Source of the DNA: Minwuia sp.
GTDB taxonomy: Bacteria; Pseudomonadota; Alphaproteobacteria; Minwuiales; Minwuiaceae
Assembly: GCA_965228535.1 (NCBI GenBank)
Contig: CBDDHU010000003.1
Span: forward strand, 348,589-372,588
Length of the DNA stretch: 24,000 nt
Reading direction: 5' to 3'
Positions within the stretch are counted from its first letter, which is position 1, and each line of letters starts with the position of its first letter. The notes under the pieces are model-generated. The model was not told the origin of the DNA, did no database searches, and saw only the letters and a program-made list of their open reading frames with translations. The position numbers and the translations under genes were made by a program. Of the stretch, positions 7,935 to 16,493 are shown piece after piece.

Positions 7935-9161
7935 ATGAGCATTGCATTCGATCCGAACGCGCCCGAGACCATCACCGATCCCTATCCGGGGCTGGCCATG
8001 CTGCGGGCCGAGGAACCGCTGCACTGGAGCCAGGTCAGCCGCGCCTGGTACATCACCCGCTACGAGGATGTGCGGAAGGGGTTCCGTGACAGGCGCATGT
8101 CGGCGGACCGCATCCGCCCCTTCGTCGAGGCCCAGCGGAACGGCCCGGACGGGGAGGAGATCGGCTTCCTGGGCGACCATATCGGCCACTGGGCGGTGTT
8201 CAACGACCCGCCGCGCCACGGCCACCTGCGCGGCCTGATGAACAAGGCCTTCACCAGCCGCCGGGTCGAGAGCCTGCGTGGCCAGGTGGCGGAGATGGTG
8301 GAGGGGCTGATCGCCGACTGGCAGGACGGGCAGGAAGTGGATTTCCACCAGGCCTTCGCCTATCCCCTGCCCGCGACCGTGATCGCGCTGCTGCTGGGGG
8401 TGCCGCAGCAGGACGTGGATCACCTGAAGCGCTGGTCGGATGCGCTGGCGCAGTTCGTGCTGACCTCCAAGACCAACCCGGACAAGTACAGGGTCGCGGC
8501 GGCGGCGCTGGCGGAGATGAACAGCTACTTCCAGGGCTTTCTCGAGGACCGGCGGGCCAACCCGGGGGAACTGGTGACCGACGGCCTGATCGACGCCACG
8601 GACGAGGGCGACCGGCTGACCGCGGACGAGCTGGTGGCAAGCTGCATCCTGCTGCTGTTCGCCGGACACGAGACCACGACGCAGTTGCTGGCCAACGGGC
8701 TGCACGCGCTGCTGCAGCATCCCGACCAACTGGCCGAGTTCCGTGCCCATGGCGATGACGCGGCCTTCACCCGCAACGCGGTGGAGGAACTGCTGCGCTT
8801 CGACGGTCCCAGCCTCACCTCGCCGCGCATCGCGGCGGAGGACGTGGAACTGCATGGCCAGACCATCGCCAAGGGCCAGCGCATCTGGCTGTGGAACTGC
8901 GCCGCCAACCGCGACGGCACGGTGTTCGAGGATCCCGACCGGCTGAACCTGCGGCGGCCCAATGCCGACCGGCATGTCACCTTCGGCTTCGGCATCCATT
9001 TCTGCATCGGCGCGCCGCTGGCGAAGCTGGAGGCGGAGGTGGCCTTCCCCATCCTGCTGCGGCGCTTCAGCCGCATCGAGGCGGTGAAACCGGTGCAGCA
9101 ATGGTCGGATTCCTACGTCTCGCGGGGCATGACCAGCTTCCCCGTGCGGGTCTGGCGCTGA
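7935..9161 (+). CDS. Cytochrome P450 monooxygenase
   Basis: Carries the heme Cys-ligand loop FGFGIHFCIGAPLA, the I-helix motif LLFAGHETTTQ and the K-helix motif EELLR. The ATG at 7935 is preceded by GGGGAGGA, and the 17-codon extension in the track is unlikely. Confidence 0.9.
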   Translation: MSIAFDPNAPETITDPYPGLAMLRAEEPLHWSQVSRAWYITRYEDVRKGFRDRRMSADRIRPFVEAQRNGPDGEEIGFLGDHIGHWAVFNDPPRHGHLRGLMNKAFTSRRVESLRGQVAEMVEGLIADWQDGQEVDFHQAFAYPLPATVIALLLGVPQQDVDHLKRWSDALAQFVLTSKTNPDKYRVAAAALAEMNSYFQGFLEDRRANPGELVTDGLIDATDEGDRLTADELVASCILLLFAGHETTTQLLANGLHALLQHPDQLAEFRAHGDDAAFTRNAVEELLRFDGPSLTSPRIAAEDVELHGQTIAKGQRIWLWNCAANRDGTVFEDPDRLNLRRPNADRHVTFGFGIHFCIGAPLAKLEAEVAFPILLRRFSRIEAVKPVQQWSDSYVSRGMTSFPVRVWR

Positions 9162-9163
9162 CC

Positions 9164-9808
9164 ATGATGAAACTGGTCGGGCGCTACACCTCGCCCTATG
9201 TCCGCCGGGTCGCGATCACCATGCTGACCTGCGGGCTGGAATTCGAGCTGGTGGAACGGCTGCCCTTCGGCGAGGACAAGGCGGAGGTGCGGAAGTTCAA
9301 CCCGCTGGGCCGCATCCCGGCGCTGGTGCTGGCGGATGGCGAGACCATCGTGGAGAGCGGCACCATCATCGACTGCCTGGACGACATGGTCGGGCCGGAG
9401 CGTGCGCTGACCCCGCCAACGGGGGCGGAGCGCCGCGCGGTGCTGAACCTGCTCGCCGTCGCCTCCGGCGCGACCGACAAGCTGGTCTCGTCGCTCTACG
9501 AACATCACCTGCGGCCGCCGGAGATGGTGCACCGGCCATGGGCCAAGATGTGCGACCGCCAGGCCACGGACGGCTTCCGCTGGCTGGAGCAGCGCCTGCA
9601 GGGCGACTGGTTCGTCGGTGACCGCATGACCCAGGCCGACCTGACCGTCGCGGTGTTCTGGCAGTTCGGGGTGGAGAAACGCCCCAACTTCTTCGCCCGC
9701 ATGGATTGCCCGAAGCTGACGGCGCTGTCCGACCGCCTTGCCGCGACCGAACCCTTCCGCCTGACGCCACAGGGCGAGGGTCTGCCGAAGGGTATCGCGC
9801 TGGAATAG
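9164..9808 (+). CDS. Glutathione S-transferase family protein
   Basis: MMKLVGRYTSPYVRRVAITML...NPLGRIPALVLADGETIVESGTIIDCL is a GST N-terminal thioredoxin-like domain. The start lies 3 nt after the P450 stop (9159-9161). The track ORF 8891..9808 carries a spurious N-terminal extension that overlaps the P450 gene. Confidence 0.85.
   Translation: MMKLVGRYTSPYVRRVAITMLTCGLEFELVERLPFGEDKAEVRKFNPLGRIPALVLADGETIVESGTIIDCLDDMVGPERALTPPTGAERRAVLNLLAVASGATDKLVSSLYEHHLRPPEMVHRPWAKMCDRQATDGFRWLEQRLQGDWFVGDRMTQADLTVAVFWQFGVEKRPNFFARMDCPKLTALSDRLAATEPFRLTPQGEGLPKGIALE
9770..9808 (+). repeat. Direct repeat copy 1 (last 13 codons, including the stop, of the GST gene)
   Basis: CAGGGCGAGGGTCTGCCGAAGGGTATCGCGCTGGAATAG recurs at 11585-11623 with a single T/C difference, which is synonymous in the GST frame (GGT vs GGC). 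Confidence 0.9.
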
Positions 9809-9895
9809 CGCCGCCCGTCGCCGCTTGTCCCGTGATCCGGCGCGTGGTCTGCTGTGGTGAACGTGCAGGTGGCCGGACGGGGGCGGGATACACGC

Positions 9896-11482
9896 ATGGT
9901 GATGGGCGTGGGGGAGATCATCGGACTGCTGGCGCTGCTGCTGACGGTTCTCGGCGGCCTGTCGGCCTATTACCTCGACATGCTGAAACACCGCCAGGGC
10001 AAGGCCTTTCTGCGTCTGCGCGCCAGCCTGCGCAAGGGCAGTACCACCGCCCTGGTCTATGCTTGGACCCTCAAATGGCTGCTGGCGAAGGTCGACCGGT
10101 TCTTCGAGGGCGAGCCCTACGATCCGAAGGACGACATCGATCCGGCCACCCGTCTGGGCCGCCTCGCGCGCTGGCTGTTCCGCCGCCCGCCCGACTACCG
10201 CCGCCCACCGAAAATCCGGGACCGGTCCTGGCAGGCCCCGGCCTGGAGCGCCGCCAGCTATGACCGCTGCCTGCTGCTGGCAGTGATCTATCCGATTGCG
10301 TCCGCCCTGCTGTCCTGGCTGATCGCGGGGGAGGCCGGAACTCTCGGGCAAGCCCTTGGCCTCGTGGACATTTCCGATGCTCTCTACCGCCTCTATGTAG
10401 GAGGAGTCTTCACGGTCGGGACGGGTTTCTTCGTCGCCGGGCTGGCCCTCAATGGCTGGAAGGGCCCGGTTTGTGTCGTGCTTTATGTGGCAATCCTTGT
10501 TGGCGGAGGAAACTTGGCGGACACGCTGTTCGCCGACGCCGACGCCAGAGCATTCGTTGTCGCTTTCGCTGTCGCCTTCGCTGTCGCTGGCGCTTTCGCT
10601 GTCGCTGGCGATGTCGCTCTCGCTTTCGCTTTCGCTGTCGCTGTCGCTGTCGCATTCGCTGTTGCTGGCGTTGCCGCTCTCGCTTTCGTTGTCGCTGTCG
10701 CTTTCGCTTTCGCTGTGGCTTTCGCTTTCGCTGTCGCTGTCGCGGCGACGCTGGACAGGAGGACCATCGTCTTCGGTTGCGTGTCCATCCTGAATCTTGT
10801 TGCAGCATATGTTGTGGTCGGCCTCGCAGCCGGACCGGACGTATCAGAGACCCGGTTTGGGATCCTCGTCGGTTTGGTGCTCCTCCCCCTCGTCAACGCC
10901 CCGTTCGACTGGCTGTCGGTCGGGCTGACACGCTATCTGCTGCGCCTGGGTCTCCAACGGCAGCGGTTGCGGGAGCGGATTGTCTGGTGGCTGGCGGATA
11001 TTGCCGGGGCGGCGCTGTTGCTGCTGGGCGTTGCCGTTGCCATGGTGGTGGCGCTGGAGGGGCTGAATGCGGTGGGTTTCGCGGGTGGCATGAGCGAGCC
11101 CATCGCGCCGGTTGCGGCGACGCTGCATGACATCCGTGCCGAACCGGACGCGGCGCGGCATCTCTGGATCTACTTTGCCCTGTTCTCCACCCTGATTCCG
11201 ACCCTGGTGCATCTGGTGGTGATCCTGTTCAGCGCGCTGACCGCCAATTTTCCGCCGTTGCAGGGCATGATCGTGCGGCTCATCGCGCTGGGACCGGATG
11301 CGGGCTACAACCCGCTGATTGGCTTCCTGCTCAGCGTTCGCTGGGTCATCGCCATCGCGGCGACCGCGTTGCTGGCCTTCTGCATCTGGTGGATCGGGTC
11401 GGCGGTGCTGCATGTCTGGGAAGACCTGCTCTGGCTGCTGATCGAGGTGCAGAAGCTCAGCCGCGCCCTGTTTGTCGGGTAG
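9896..11482 (+). CDS. Orphan multi-pass membrane protein with a central (Val/Phe)-Ala dipeptide-repeat array; no family recognised
   Basis: This is the only long ORF spanning the region. From the ATG at 9896 it is 528 aa; the track GTG at 9854 adds 14 aa. It begins with a hydrophobic helix (GEIIGLLALLLTVLGGLSAYYL), followed by a basic, proline-containing stretch (RRPPDYRRPPKIRDRSW). Many hydrophobic segments then run to the C-terminus. Confidence 0.6.
   Translation: MVMGVGEIIGLLALLLTVLGGLSAYYLDMLKHRQGKAFLRLRASLRKGSTTALVYAWTLKWLLAKVDRFFEGEPYDPKDDIDPATRLGRLARWLFRRPPDYRRPPKIRDRSWQAPAWSAASYDRCLLLAVIYPIASALLSWLIAGEAGTLGQALGLVDISDALYRLYVGGVFTVGTGFFVAGLALNGWKGPVCVVLYVAILVGGGNLADTLFADADARAFVVAFAVAFAVAGAFAVAGDVALAFAFAVAVAVAFAVAGVAALAFVVAVAFAFAVAFAFAVAVAATLDRRTIVFGCVSILNLVAAYVVVGLAAGPDVSETRFGILVGLVLLPLVNAPFDWLSVGLTRYLLRLGLQRQRLRERIVWWLADIAGAALLLLGVAVAMVVALEGLNAVGFAGGMSEPIAPVAATLHDIRAEPDAARHLWIYFALFSTLIPTLVHLVVILFSALTANFPPLQGMIVRLIALGPDAGYNPLIGFLLSVRWVIAIAATALLAFCIWWIGSAVLHVWEDLLWLLIEVQKLSRALFVG
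10553..10744 (+). repeat. Tandem hexanucleotide repeat, about 32 units of (G/T)TCGCT
   Basis: The run GTCGCT TTCGCT GTCGCC TTCGCT GTCGCT GGCGCT ... is read in frame as FVVAFAVAFAVAGAFAVAGDVALAFAFAVAVAVAFAVAGVAALAFVVAVAFAFAVAFAFAVAVA. All six frames are open across it, which is why the track shows SLSLSL, RCRFRC, KRKRQR and ATATAKAK artefact ORFs. Confidence 0.9.
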
Positions 11483-11584
11483 CGGGTCGCTTCGCCTTCC
11501 CCCCGCAGACCGAGAACCTGATGCTTGGTCCGGCCCCTGGATGTTCGTGCGGTACTCCCGGATGCCCGGGTCGCGCCCACGTCG

Positions 11585-11623
11585 CAGGGCGAGGGCCTGC
11601 CGAAGGGTATCGCGCTGGAATAG
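11585..11623 (+). repeat. Direct repeat copy 2 (non-coding duplicate of the GST 3' end)
   Basis: CAGGGCGAGGGCCTGCCGAAGGGTATCGCGCTGGAATAG matches 9770-9808 at 38 of 39 positions. In the GST frame an in-frame TGA lies about 25 codons upstream, so no functional GST reading frame leads into it. Confidence 0.9.
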
Positions 11624-11670
11624 GGCAACAGGAGCGCGGGGCGGAGGTGTCCGGCGCGTTGATCCCCGGT

Positions 11671-12429
11671 TCAGTTGGTGAGCCAGCCGGAACGGGCGGC
11701 GATGGCGATGGCCTCGGTGCGGTTGGCGGCGTTGAGTTTCTTCATCACGTTGGCGACGTGGAACTTCACGGTGCGTTCGCTGATGCCCAGGATCTCGCCG
11801 ATCTCCGAGTTGCTGCGGCCCCTCGACATCCACAGCAGGCATTCCTGTTCCCGGCGGGAGAACATGACGTCCGCCAGTTCGCCCTCCCCGCCCAGCACCA
11901 GGTAGTCGGCGATGCTGACGGTGAAGCGCAGCGCCAGCCGGTGTACCTCGTTGGTGGTGGCGGCGATGGTCTCCGCCGCGCCGGCCGGGTCGCCCAGCAT
12001 GAACAGGTACAGGGCCTGGGTGCGCAGCGGGGTGTTCATGGGGATGAACAGGTCATGCTTGATGCCGAAGCGCTTCTCCAGCGCCCAGATCCAGCGTTGC
12101 CGCCGGGTCAGCACCATTCCCGACCGCTCCGCCAGGGTGGTGAAGGGGGCATGGCGTTCGGAGACAAGCTGCAGCATCGGGTCGAAGCGGAACATGCGGC
12201 GGCTGTAGTAGATTGCCTCGAACGCCTTCAGGAAGGCCGGCCCGCGAGAGAGCACGAACGCCTCCCCCGCCGCGACCTCGTCCAGCGGCATGCGGCGGTG
12301 GGTGTAGTAGACGAAGCCCGCATAGCCCATGCCGCGCACGCGGTATTCCAGCGCGTCGCCCAGATCGTCCAGCGAGATGGCCTCCGCCATCTGCCGCTCG
12401 AACTCCAGATCCGGTCCCTGTTCAGCCAT
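11671..12429 (-). CDS. LuxR-family transcriptional regulator with an autoinducer-binding-like N-terminal domain (LuxR solo in this window)
   Basis: 252-aa ORF. The C-terminus carries the HTH region SRREQECLLWMSRGRSNSEIGEILGISERTVKFHVANVMKKLNAANRTEAIAIA. The N-terminal region of about 170 aa resembles acyl-HSL receptor domains (for example RFDPM and FGIKHDLFIP). No luxI-type synthase is present in the window. Confidence 0.85.
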   Translation of the reverse strand: MAEQGPDLEFERQMAEAISLDDLGDALEYRVRGMGYAGFVYYTHRRMPLDEVAAGEAFVLSRGPAFLKAFEAIYYSRRMFRFDPMLQLVSERHAPFTTLAERSGMVLTRRQRWIWALEKRFGIKHDLFIPMNTPLRTQALYLFMLGDPAGAAETIAATTNEVHRLALRFTVSIADYLVLGGEGELADVMFSRREQECLLWMSRGRSNSEIGEILGISERTVKFHVANVMKKLNAANRTEAIAIAARSGWLTN

Positions 12430-12478
12430 CCGGTCCCCTCCGTCAGCGCCATACTGCTGCAGCCGGAACGGGAACTGT

Positions 12479-12498
12479 ACCTGTCCGAACGGTCAGGT
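12479..12498. promoter_or_regulatory. lux-box-like 20-bp imperfect palindrome upstream of the LuxR-family gene
   Basis: In ACCTGTCCGAACGGTCAGGT, 8 of 10 positions are dyad-symmetric. By hand alignment it is identical to the Vibrio fischeri lux box ACCTGTAGGATCGTACAGGT at 15 of 20 positions. Its centre is about 60 bp upstream of the ATG at 12429. It overlaps a perfect tandem GTCAGGT GTCAGGT (12492-12505). Confidence 0.45.
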
Positions 12499-12606
12499 GT
12501 CAGGTTTCATCGGGATCCTGCCGGTCGCGAACGCCTCGAGCCGGGCACCCGGGCCTGGCCCGGTCGCGCCGTGGGGTCCCGAGGCGACCTTCCGGGAGTC
12601 CATCGC

Positions 12607-12755
12607 TGACTGTTCCATCCCTCTCCCCCTCCCGGCCACTCAATAAGGATACTCCCGTGGGTGGCCGGGAGGGGGAGAGGGATGGAACAGGCCAACCAGC
12701 AAGTCCGGAGAGGGATGGAACAGACCACAGACAGACCCGGAGAGGGACGGAACGG
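12607..12755. repeat. REP-like element: a perfect 30-bp-stem hairpin plus two further direct copies of its terminal 17-mer
   Basis: Arms CTGTTCCATCCCTCTCCCCCTCCCGGCCAC (12610-12639) and GTGGCCGGGAGGGGGAGAGGGATGGAACAG (12661-12690) are exact reverse complements around a 21-nt loop. The motif GGAGAGGGATGGAACAG recurs at 12707-12723 and as the variant GGAGAGGGACGGAACGG at 12739-12755, with a period of about 33 bp. The element lies between the sdhB stop and the LuxR promoter region. Confidence 0.8.
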
Positions 12756-12775
12756 CAATCAGATGGCGAACCGGC

Positions 12776-13561
12776 CTAGAGCTTGCGCTCCACCATCATC
12801 TTCTTCAGCTCCGCGATCGCCCGGGCCGGGTTGAGACCCTTCGGGCAGGTGTGGGCGCAGTTCATGATGGTGTGGCAGCGATAGAGCTTGAACGGGTCTT
12901 CCAGCTTGTCGAGCCGGTCGCCCGTGGCCTCGTCGCGGCTGTCGATGACCCAGCGATAGGCCTGCAGCAGCACGGCGGGGCCGAGGTATCGGTCGCTGTT
13001 CCACCAGTAGCTGGGGCAGGAGGTGGCGCAGCAGGCGCACAGGATGCACTCGTACAGCCCGTCGATCTTCACCCGGTCCTCGCGGTCCTGCAGGCGCTCC
13101 CGGTCCGGCGGGGCCGGGGTCTTGGTCTGCATCCACGGCTCGATGGAGGCATACTGGGCGTAGAAGTGGGTCAGGTCGCCGACCAGGTCCTTGATCACGT
13201 CCAGGTGCGGCAGGGGATAGATCTTCACGTCCCCCTTCACGTCCTGGATGCCCTTGGTGCAGGCCAGCGTGTTGGTGCCGTCGATGTTCATGGCGCAGGA
13301 GCCGCAGATGCCCTCGCGGCAGGACCGGCGGAAGGTCAGGGTCGGATCGACCTCGTCCTTGATGCGGATCAGCGCGTCCAGGATCATCGGGCCGCAATCG
13401 TCGAGATCGACCTCGTAGGTATCGACCCGCGGGTTCTCGCCCGAGTCCGGATCATAGCGGTAGATCTTGAACTTCTTGGTGTTGCTGCCCGATCCGACCT
13501 TCGGCCAGGTCTTGCCGTTGGACTTGATCCGGGAATTTGCCGGAAGATTGAATTCGACCAT
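12776..13561 (-). CDS. sdhB: Succinate dehydrogenase iron-sulfur subunit
   Basis: 261-aa ORF with three Cys clusters: [31 protein letters not shown] and [17 protein letters not shown]. Confidence 0.95.
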
Positions 13562-15420: not shown

Positions 15421-15810
15421 TCAACCCCCGAAGGCAATCTTGAGGACGGCAAGCGCGCAGATCAGGGCACCGATCCAGCAGCCGAACGTGTTGACGAACA
15501 TGAGGACCAGCTTCGACGCATGGCCGTGCACGTAATCCTCGATCACCACCTGAATACCCAGCTTCAGGTGCCAGAACACCGCCACGATGAGCAGCAGCAG
15601 CACACCGGCCACCACCGGATGGCCGACGATGCCGTCAGCGGTCAGGTAGTCGGCGGAGGTCAGGCGGATGGCCAGGACGACGAAGGCGAAGACCAGCGGC
15701 ACCAGCGCGATGGCGGTGACCCGCTGCATCCACCAGTGTTCCGTGCCGTCCTTGGCCGAGCCCAGGCCCCGGACGTTCTTCAGCGGCGTGTTGAGACGCG
15801 ATCTGGCCAT
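15421..15810 (-). CDS. sdhD: Succinate dehydrogenase membrane anchor subunit
   Basis: 129 aa starting [33 protein letters not shown], with three hydrophobic helices and the motif [15 protein letters not shown]. This is the C-terminal part of track ORF 15421..16308, and the rest overlaps sdhC in another frame. Confidence 0.88.
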
Positions 15811-15812
15811 GG

Positions 15813-16202
15813 TCAGCCTCCCCATCCGTAAGCGGCGATCCATGCCAATACGGTCAGGACCGTCGCGCCGATCACCACCATGTAGCCACTGCGGAATGCC
15901 GCGGAGACCTCGAAGCCCCAGCCGGCATCCCAGTACAGGTGCCGCAGGCCGTTGCAGAGGTGGTAGAACAGCGCCCAGGTGAAGCCCAGCAGGACCAGGC
16001 GGCCGATGATGCTGCCCGCGATCCCCATGACAAAGTCGTAATATTCCGGCCCGCTCGCCAACGCGACCAGCCACCAGAGCAACAGGACGAGACCGCCCCC
16101 CAGCGCCACGCCCGTGCCGCGATGCAGGATCGACAGCTTGGCGATGAGCGGAAGACGGTAGACCTGTAGATGCGGTGACAACGGGCGATTGGTGTTCGTC
16201 AT
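15813..16202 (-). CDS. sdhC: Succinate dehydrogenase cytochrome b556 subunit
   Basis: MTNTNRPLSPHLQVYRLPLIAKLSILHRGTGV is the SdhC N-terminal signature. The ATG at 16202 is preferred over the track start at 16226. Confidence 0.88.
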   Translation of the reverse strand: MTNTNRPLSPHLQVYRLPLIAKLSILHRGTGVALGGGLVLLLWWLVALASGPEYYDFVMGIAGSIIGRLVLLGFTWALFYHLCNGLRHLYWDAGWGFEVSAAFRSGYMVVIGATVLTVLAWIAAYGWGG

Positions 16203-16493
16203 GTCTGACCCCCTGCTTGCTGCCACGGGTCCCGGACGATGACCGTGCCGGATGGACCACGTGGAAAACCGATGGCACGCCGCCCGACCCTCGGACGCTG
16301 CGTACCATCCCCCAAATCCATGAACGTGACCGGCGGGAACAGACGAATATTCTCCGGCCCCCCGACCGCTCAGGCCGTCAGTGTGCGGTTGCGGGACAGT
16401 CCTGTCAAACGAAGCTTCTGTTATGCAAGCACTTGTTGACCGTCATCAATCCGTCCGAGGCACGGCAAACGGGGCCATGGACGCCGCTTCCGG

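Follow-up and report, generated by a model that had tools for sequence, protein, structure and literature searches.

The 24,000-nucleotide stretch of Minwuia sp. DNA analysed here (NCBI GenBank assembly GCA_965228535.1, contig CBDDHU010000003.1, positions 348,589 to 372,588 of the forward strand) is called the window, and positions are counted from its first base. It contains a gene for a membrane protein in which a six-base unit is repeated 32 times. The question that this locus raises is why a membrane protein would carry such an array, and in particular whether the array is a recent accident of one genome or an old part of the protein. As described below, the array is a translated coding microsatellite and the hallmark of an undescribed protein family, and a role of this family in conflict systems of the anti-phage type is possible.

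The array, its family and its codons

The array occupies positions 10553 to 10744 of the forward strand and lies within an open reading frame (ORF) at 9896 to 11482 of the same strand. The 528-amino acid product is, from the ORF list, the homologs and an AlphaFold2 model, a polytopic membrane protein of an uncharacterized family; an alternative GTG start at 9854 would give 542 amino acids. The 192 bases of the array share the reading frame of the ORF and consist of 32 head-to-tail units of the form NNC-GNT, a period of six and hence a multiple of three, which encode 64 residues of alternating (V/F/G/L)-Ala (residues 220-283), referred to as X-Ala here. Tandem Repeats Finder places the array at 10554-10743, free of indels, with a period of 6, 31.7 copies, 78% matches and a score of 205, which makes it by far the strongest repeat in the window (the runner-up scores 102). 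An earlier reading, made from the letters alone and called the sequence-only reading here, had described about 32 in-frame hexamers and 64 residues at this site, and both the program and the ORF frame bear this out.

The unit keeps its register across all 32 copies; C is the last base of the first codon in 30 of them, and T that of the second in 29. Ala is present at 28 of the 32 even positions, and the four other residues at these positions are encoded by GTT (three) and GAT (one), each of which is one base from GCT and keeps the T. Val at the X positions, unlike these, is encoded by GTC. Therefore, the thing that was copied is the DNA unit NNC-GNT. The 29 Ala codons of the array are GCT (25), GCC (2), GCA (1) and GCG (1), exactly as counted by hand in the sequence-only reading, whereas the 61 Ala codons elsewhere in the ORF are GCT (2), GCC (28), GCG (25) and GCA (6). 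GCT is likewise rare in the surrounding genes, as had been claimed, with 0-3% of the Ala codons in the Rho, P450, GST, LuxR, sdhA and sdhB genes of the window. A family of direct repeats inside the array has copies spaced 12 and 18 nucleotides (nt) apart, and the sub-duplications reported earlier at 10583 and 10601 and at 10616 and 10676 are visible. Codon homogeneity that indicates inheritance of a unit at the DNA level is thus present in the window array, and it recurs in the pooled family data given below. The region is coding because both flanks are kept in the frame of the array across hundreds of homologs, which also removes the concern, raised in the sequence-only reading itself, that the region might be untranslated or an artefact. 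We conclude that the array is a translated coding microsatellite, in which X-Ala arises from a six-base NNC-GCT unit.

The homologs of this protein are numerous. Word-index searches returned 386 and 693 of them, and when 1.84 billion cluster representatives (clusters at 50% identity) were searched exhaustively with a profile, 3,392 passed E ≤ 1e-3 and 1,287 the stricter E ≤ 1e-30. The named sources are chiefly Alphaproteobacteria (Minwuia, Rhodospirillum, Rhodospira, Hyphomonas, Planktomarina, Methylocystis and Methylocella); some are Gammaproteobacteria (Thiothrix, Leucothrix and Nevskia), and one is a Nitrosovibrio. The family as a whole is mostly alphaproteobacterial, with some members from Gammaproteobacteria and Betaproteobacteria. 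The nearest relatives are a metagenomic protein that is 62% identical and two paralogs, 69% and 50% identical, in one Minwuia sp. metagenome-assembled genome (MAG), JARGNO01. Because the top relatives are only 62-69% identical, the window's own species is not in the collections. The two paralogs (L004 on contig 27 and L005 on contig 68) differ at the array site: one has the X-Ala array intact and matches the window protein at 69% identity over the aligned part, and in the other (50% identical) the array has decayed to ordinary hydrophobic sequence with charged residues. Models in Pfam, NCBIfam, PADLOC and PHROG match neither the window protein nor representative homologs; there are 0 Pfam matches to the window protein at E ≤ 1 and 0 PADLOC matches to it and three homologs. 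These results agree with the earlier statement that no family of this kind has been described.

An alternating (V/F/G/I/L/S)-Ala stretch lies between the two conserved halves of the protein, at the same site, in all 16 of the diverse homologs inspected, and these stretches vary in length and arrangement. Related loci in reference genomes were sought with the most conserved motif of the family, LPLVNAPFDWLSVGLTRYLLR, as the search pattern, and the genome scan was based on an 11-sequence alignment. Arrays of at least 20 residues are present in 32 genes among 74 related loci, a number also given as 32 of about 50 genomic loci; the longest have 92-96 residues, some are nearly pure (VA)n, and they sit at the matching position even where the homologs, which come from many genera, are only 25-35% identical. 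Over the retrieved members, the X residues are mainly V, G and F (878, 653 and 649 occurrences, respectively) as opposed to L and I (161 and 145). This is, therefore, an undescribed family of polytopic membrane proteins of about 500 amino acids, with the X-Ala array as its hallmark. As a separate observation, many members of the 90%-identity clusters P0053, P0039, P0060 and P0172 are fragments of about 230-250 amino acids; X-Ala arrays thus seem to be frequent breakpoints of metagenome assemblies or gene calls, and repeat lengths in public assemblies need caution.

The sequence-only reading had proposed that the array could vary in length by dipeptide steps with the frame intact, and orthologous arrays support this proposal. 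In 17 Planktomarina-type orthologs from different samples, the flanks are 94% identical and the array 63%; all 30 of the indel-variable alignment columns lie inside the array, which is 48, 50, 52, 54 or 58 residues long. The DNA of four Planktomarina-type orthologs has indels of 6, 12 and 18 nt at short direct repeats; for example, the unit GTCGCATTCGCA is present in one copy or two. Clusters P0053 and P0039 have 2- and 4-residue indels, again in the array only, and so close relatives in all three sets differ by whole units that are confined to the array. Internal length variation was absent from three clusters with degenerate arrays (P0022, P0035 and P0073) and from P0172, which has no array. 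Instability therefore tracks the purity of the repeat, as slippage predicts, and the array indels of near-identical orthologs are the footprint to be expected of replication slippage. A phase-variable on/off contingency locus was also considered and rejected: the unit is 6 nt long and inside the coding region, and all of the indels are 6, 12 or 18 nt.

The codons of the array are conserved across the family as well. When 32 loci are pooled, GCT makes up 623 of the 732 Ala codons inside the arrays (85%) versus 469 of the 2321 outside (20%), GTC 86% of the Val codons inside versus 40% outside, and GGC 85% of the Gly codons inside versus 54% outside. CTG, which is the main Leu codon outside the arrays, accounts for 2 of the 40 Leu codons within them, and adenine for 2.6% of the array bases. 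The enrichment of GCT is significant at 25 of the 32 loci taken singly (Fisher p<0.001), and in single lineages GCT encodes 29 of 29, 47 of 48 and 43 of 43 array Ala residues. GCA replaces GCT in L037, L026 and the Planktomarina group. None of the loci examined has GCC or GCG as the Ala codon of a long array; the short degenerate arrays have the genome-typical GCC/GCG. The family-wide set of codons is consequently a narrow one, with GTC, TTC or GGC for X and GCT, or GCA in some lineages, for Ala. Orthologs thus keep both the residues and the codons, instead of the diverse codons that the sequence-only reading had named as a sign against itself. Third codon positions are more conserved than the X residue, although the flanks are only 25-35% identical; therefore, a single recent expansion is insufficient to explain the arrays.

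Two general causes of this codon choice were rejected. Translational optimality of GCT does not agree with its low share of the Ala codons in highly expressed genes, namely atpA (2%), atpD (6%), rho (3%) and sdhA (2%), and a general C-to-T mutational bias does not agree with the frequencies of GTT, TTT and GGT, which are about 8-11% in the arrays versus 85% for GCT. Predicted folding energies, in kcal/mol per 100 nt for 18 arrays recoded in silico, follow codon use more closely. The native arrays have an energy of -34.4, compared with -37.2 ± 6.3 for non-array windows of the same genes. Recoding all Ala to GCT, which is used, gives -32.6 and to GCA, which is used in a few lineages, -29.3, whereas the avoided GCC and GCG give -47.3 and -67.7. 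For Val, GTT (a minor codon) gives -32.9 and the dominant GTC -34.8, versus -43.6 and -43.9 for the avoided GTA and GTG. The window array alone has -40 kcal/mol in its native form and -82 ± 7 with genome-typical Ala codons. Because the codons that are used keep predicted folding no stronger than is usual for coding sequence, we read the codon restriction as selection, or survivorship, against self-complementary repeats. Weak self-pairing fits all four of the codon-level observations, and long arrays would presumably be viable at the mRNA or DNA level only if their units pair weakly with themselves.

The membrane module and explanations of the array

The AlphaFold2 model of the window protein, made from a 54-sequence alignment, is all-helical and confident as a whole (mean pLDDT 84.4, pTM 0.84). 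Foldseek found no relative of the model in the PDB (best E = 0.11, TM-score 0.18) or among viral models, and a profile search of the PDB sequences gave 0 matches. A basic helical region, residues 32-118 (9989 to 10249, forward strand), lies between the first two transmembrane (TM) helices, TM1 and TM2; it has 20 Lys/Arg residues and modelled helices at 36-45, 51-71 and 86-94, and by the positive-inside rule it is probably cytoplasmic. The same rule puts the acidic FADADA loop that precedes the array on the periplasmic side and the DRR loop that follows it on the cytoplasmic side, and the array therefore crosses the membrane an odd number of times. AlphaFold2 has array helices at 218-235, 241-255 and 259-286, with breaks at Gly-rich spots, and a second model, of the Minwuia paralog P0002 with its degenerate array, also has three low-confidence helices at this site. 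We tentatively assign three TM helices to the array segment; the beta-type arrangement suggested in the sequence-only reading is not favoured, although the confidence of the helices is low. Since Ala or Gly occurs at every second residue, small-xxx-small pairs, of the form (G/A/S)xxx(G/A/S), cover the predicted helices repeatedly along their length. The distance between the conserved anchors on either side of the array has a second mode at about 260-270 residues, some 55-60 longer than the main one and mostly from one subfamily. That the segment is quantised as one, three or five helices is only suggestive.

Three motifs mark the conserved halves. DRCLLLAVIYP (residues 123-133; 10262 to 10294, forward strand) is conserved in the family alignments at the start of TM2; A129, Y132 and P133 are invariant in the 54 sequences, and in the 11-sequence set D123 is invariant and R124 and C125 are nearly so. 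The motif LPLVNAPFDWLSVGLTRYLLR (residues 330-350; 10883 to 10945, forward strand) has polar residues within a long helix, with N334, D338 and T345 invariant and G343 and R346 nearly invariant. The third, HLWIYFALFSTLIPTLVH (residues 422-439; 11159 to 11212, forward strand), has invariant W424 and P435 and nearly invariant S431 and T432. The family consensus of the three is DRCLLLAxxYP, LPLVNAPFDWxSxGLTRxLLR and HxWIYFxLFSTLIPTxxH, and D368 is also invariant in the family.

Some of the relatives have additional domains at the N terminus. Among 58 N-terminally extended relatives, 37 have DUF4062, three TIR_2 (best 1.4e-24), one TIR and one a Cap4-type nuclease domain (Cap4_nuclease); relative L022 has an N-terminal caspase domain (E = 4.5e-16), and L032 has a weak esterase-like match. 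Three 2026 preprints (bioRxiv 10.64898/2026.05.01.722283, 10.64898/2026.06.25.731849 and 10.64898/2026.09.04.749371) show that anti-phage systems use DUF4062 as a TIR-like NADase effector and couple it to sensing or auxiliary regions that vary. None of the three mentions a transmembrane partner, and the word 'transmembrane' occurs 0 times in each. Interchangeable executioner heads on a constant module typify conflict systems, and for this reason we take the membrane module to be a possible sensor, scaffold or effector of such a system, an assignment that we make with more hesitation than confidence, and with much less confidence than the descriptive findings. The window protein would then be a headless version of the module.

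The explanation that we prefer joins these observations, and taken as a whole we think it probable, with reservations. The array encodes a hypervariable central segment between the two conserved halves of a polytopic inner-membrane protein. At the level of nucleic acid, selection or survivorship against self-complementary units would restrict the codons; at the level of protein, the segment would form an odd number of TM helices, three in this case, with a small residue at every second position and packing motifs on all faces, and so would be a hydrophobic module that tolerates changes in sequence and is constrained in length. One recent event is not enough, and repeated turnover of units together with a constraint on the nucleotide sequence is needed. 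The module would serve a conflict system of the anti-phage type as sensor, scaffold or effector, with heads that are NADase (DUF4062), TIR, caspase or nuclease-like, and slippage would let the membrane-embedded part change rapidly in length and surface.

Several findings weigh against this explanation. The window protein has no effector head, neither DUF4062 (PF13271) nor TIR, and the majority of the retrieved family members are headless, so that the putative function is drawn solely from fusions in relatives. The window gene is set among rho, P450, GST, LuxR and sdh genes. An all-against-all comparison of the flanking ORFs of about 70 loci found no conserved partner gene, since no neighbour occurs in more than 6 loci, and the neighbours that recur in up to 6 are housekeeping genes of related genomes. 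Defence models match only about 6 of 126 immediate neighbours, the majority of the neighbours are housekeeping genes, and this, along with the 0 PADLOC matches, means that neither a known defence system nor a defence island was found. The length polymorphism is from orthologs in other species and not from the window's organism. The homolog lineages are not phylogenetically independent, and the pooled codon counts therefore overstate the number of independent observations; the avoidance of structure is a correlation, in which selection on the mRNA, through translation or insertion, and differential survival of DNA repeats, through preferential loss of those prone to hairpins, are inseparable. 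The array is the least confident membrane part of the model (block pLDDT 53-80, and 40-57 in P0002). Finally, Minwuia paralog P0002 and cluster P0172 carry ordinary hydrophobic sequence at the array site, so that the strict alternation is dispensable in some members and can decay.

A bolder form of the preferred explanation is improbable in our estimation, namely that the family consists of new single-gene, membrane-embedded immune sensors or effectors, in which the central TM segment is a diversity generator kept evolvable by selection at the nucleotide level for A-free units that pair weakly with themselves. If it were true, slippage would retune the length and surface of the three helices, and with them the trigger specificity or threshold of the attached NADase, TIR, caspase or nuclease head; in headless forms such as the window protein, slippage would retune pore formation by the module; and hypervariability would reside within the membrane and not in a soluble receptor domain.

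Some of the same evidence would also suit a simpler account, in which the segment is tolerated low-complexity filler that needs only hydrophobicity and a rough length; an early slippage-prone hexamer would have persisted because the membrane accepts any mixture of V, F, G and A, its length variation would be neutral and its codons would reflect pure survivorship, in that only units of weak hairpin potential could lengthen and escape deletion. The distance between the conserved anchors is constrained (median 205 residues) and independent of the amount of pure X-Ala (r = -0.13), as filler would be, and the ordinary sequence in P0002 and P0172 and the failure of AlphaFold2 to place the segment with confidence are in keeping with it. 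The ranking of folding energies, moreover, suits survivorship as well as it suits selection. However, most of the retrieved members retain an array of 20 residues or more, across classes whose flanks are only 25-35% identical, and in genomes of 60-70% GC point mutation should make a neutral microsatellite decay toward GC-rich codons. The preference for V, G and F over the equally hydrophobic L and I likewise suggests a constraint beyond hydrophobicity. We consider this account rather unlikely.

Doubtful to a similar degree is the idea that the protein is a housekeeping transporter, channel or biogenesis factor, in which polar residues (N334, D338, T345/R346, D368 and S431/T432) form a substrate or ion site and the fusions are a side branch. 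Those residues are conserved within predicted helices, the neighbourhoods consist mostly of housekeeping genes and most of the members are headless, all of which would be expected. However, neither the sequence (no Pfam match, 0 matches in the PDB profile search) nor the fold (the Foldseek values given above) has significant similarity to known transporter or channel superfamilies such as MATE/MOP, MFS and APC. The gene also has the traits of an accessory gene, which are the lack of synteny between homologs of 50-69% identity, the two paralogs in one MAG and the flanking duplications described below that resemble those of an insertion.

The sequence-only reading had itself offered a recent expansion of one DNA unit, and as a lineage-specific event in the window gene, with no selection on the array, we regard this as very improbable. 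The part of the claim that concerns a DNA unit, as opposed to selection residue by residue, has held up, and the extreme codon homogeneity, the internal 12- and 18-nt sub-duplications and the great differences among the arrays of the closest homologs (64 amino acids in the window protein, about 40 in P0001 and about 62, rearranged, in L004) would all agree with recent expansion. The part that made the array recent and private to this gene has not, in that dozens of distant homologs share similar arrays, their position and their codons, which makes the array an old feature of the family; convergence of so many on NNC-GCT would be unexpected. The present-day arrays may be young and yet descend from a pre-existing one, and a very young family spread by recent horizontal transfer is opposed by the 25-35% identity of the flanks. 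As for an assembly artefact, a pseudogene or a function of the opposite strand or a different frame, the array is open in all six frames and some cluster members are fragments of about 230-250 amino acids, but the flanks are kept in one frame across thousands of proteins from independent assemblies, the full-length AlphaFold2 model is confident, nothing in Rfam overlaps the array, and arrays occur in isolate genomes and long contigs, which leaves this explanation with a negligible probability.

Flanking repeats and neighbouring genes

The array gene is flanked by direct repeats. The left copy (9764 to 9811, forward strand) is the original 3' end of the GST gene that lies upstream, with the TAG stop codon of that gene at 9806-9808, and the right copy (11579 to 11626, forward strand) is a displaced duplicate of that end, 92% identical, located about 100 nt past the stop of the array gene and 45 nt from the LuxR stop. 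The repeat has a 39-nt core with one mismatch, and a pattern search found exactly two copies where chance predicts 0. L004, the 69%-identical homolog from the Minwuia MAG, sits after a LuxR gene, whose protein is closely similar to the one in the window; downstream of this homolog the LuxR 3' end is repeated, exactly over 46 nt and with one mismatch over about 57 nt (L004 4954-5009 and 6962-7015). The other Minwuia paralog is located between atpC and lysS. Flanking duplications of a target gene's 3' end are of the att type, and the array gene looks like a single-gene cassette of 1.8 kb that has entered the DNA at two different targets. Flanking repeats of this kind are present at only two of 49 loci. 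Conserved element termini were not found downstream, and only the leader is conserved upstream; the membrane protein gene is the only plausible gene between the repeats, where neither an integrase nor a recombinase is encoded.

The leader extends from 9812 to 9895 (forward strand) and aligns with positions 5100-5187 of L004 and 1-92 of L002. The blocks common to the three closest homologs are GCTTRTC-N16-17-ATGCTCTGCT, followed by AACGTGCAGG..GGCCG..CGGGGGC.GGA.ACACGCATG. The leader could be a promoter or regulatory element that travels with the gene. A consensus scan of the leader found no sigma-70-like promoter, and Rfam has no match across 9000-13000. One terminator-like site within the array was dismissed, as it is not above chance expectation.

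The surroundings of the gene display some features of their own. A LuxR-type regulator with autoinducer-binding and GerE domains (11671 to 12429, reverse strand) lies between the sdh operon and the array gene, and a LuxI-type synthase was not seen among the neighbouring genes scanned. The pairing of sdhB and LuxR is kept in the Minwuia MAG (L004). The spacer that separates the LuxR-type gene from sdhB (12610-12759) has a 33-nt inverted repeat (12610-12642 and 12658-12690, 97% complementary), which is overlapped by a 32-nt tandem repeat of 2.5 copies (12674-12753), and the sdhB-LuxR spacer of L004 also looks repeat-rich. The ORF at 15421 to 16308 (reverse strand), which spans the sdhC/sdhD membrane subunits, has GCT for 29% of its Ala codons, versus 0-3% in the other window genes; it may be two genes merged or may include non-coding sequence.

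Among the 126 immediate neighbours of the related loci, about five are resolvases or transposases. A TIR-fused relative, P0162, on a 9.4-kb contig from JGI sample 3300047160, lies beside a TPR-caspase protein (Peptidase_C14), together with a resolvase and numerous short ORFs that lack annotation. In contrast to the housekeeping setting of the window gene, that contig has the look of mobile or variable DNA.

Comparison with known systems

Single-gene defence systems that combine DUF4062 or a TIR-like NADase with other regions (Swarozyc, Evangelion and NIR-containing systems) resemble the fused relatives, which have an N-terminal DUF4062 or TIR domain followed by a large variable 'auxiliary' region. 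They differ in that the auxiliary region of these relatives is a membrane module of 10-12 helices, and the window protein is headless and has no PADLOC match. With its conserved motifs and recurrent fusions to immune effectors, the family as delimited here is a concrete candidate for a membrane-linked defence module. Integrative elements of the att type are similar in having a 39-48-nt repeat of the 3' end of the upstream gene, including the stop codon, with the same arrangement at a different target elsewhere. However, the 1.8-kb segment has no integrase or other gene, the targets differ (GST versus LuxR), the termini are not conserved and the repeats are present at only the two loci mentioned above.

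Glycine zippers and other small-xxx-small motifs are a signature linked to tight helix-helix packing and homo-oligomeric channels, and the zippers known so far span only 8-12 residues of unvarying sequence. The X-Ala array would similarly offer (G/A)xxx(G/A) pairs at every turn of a helix, but it is 60-100 residues long, has a period of two and varies in length. Examples of the known motifs are given in PMC10240207 and PMC3178497.

The A/T-ending codons of the array have a counterpart in the spidroins, where 86-91% of the Gly and Ala codons of MaSp1/2 end in A or T (PMC1885213); this is also the case in MiSp (PMC3522626), and replication slippage and intragenic homogenisation have been invoked for spidroins too. 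In the X-Ala family, Ala is similarly encoded by GCT or GCA, and GCC and GCG hardly ever occur. However, the spidroins are secreted eukaryotic fibres with beta-sheet crystals, whereas the X-Ala array is a bacterial membrane segment modelled as helices, in genomes that otherwise rarely use A/T-ending codons. The array is an unusually clean natural case in which the synonymous sites of a repeat are conserved beyond its amino acids and track predicted self-pairing.

In-frame coding tandem repeats that vary in length by slippage, of the variable number tandem repeat (VNTR) type, are known from bacterial surface proteins (reviewed in PMC3899988). The X-Ala array is similar in that the length of its unit is divisible by three, close relatives gain and lose units without a frameshift and instability depends on purity. 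It differs in that it lies within the TM segments of a polytopic protein and not in an exposed or disordered region, and in that the nucleotides of its unit are conserved across a divergent family instead of having originated independently in each lineage. Slippage-driven length variation is thus possible inside the TM helices of a polytopic protein, and how the topology tolerates dipeptide steps is a question that can be tested.

In conclusion, the closest known phenomena are the in-frame coding VNTRs and the A/T-ending codon bias of the Gly/Ala repeats of silk. What is new here is that such a repeat is located inside TM helices and that a large, undescribed family with fusions of the immune type has kept its unit throughout.

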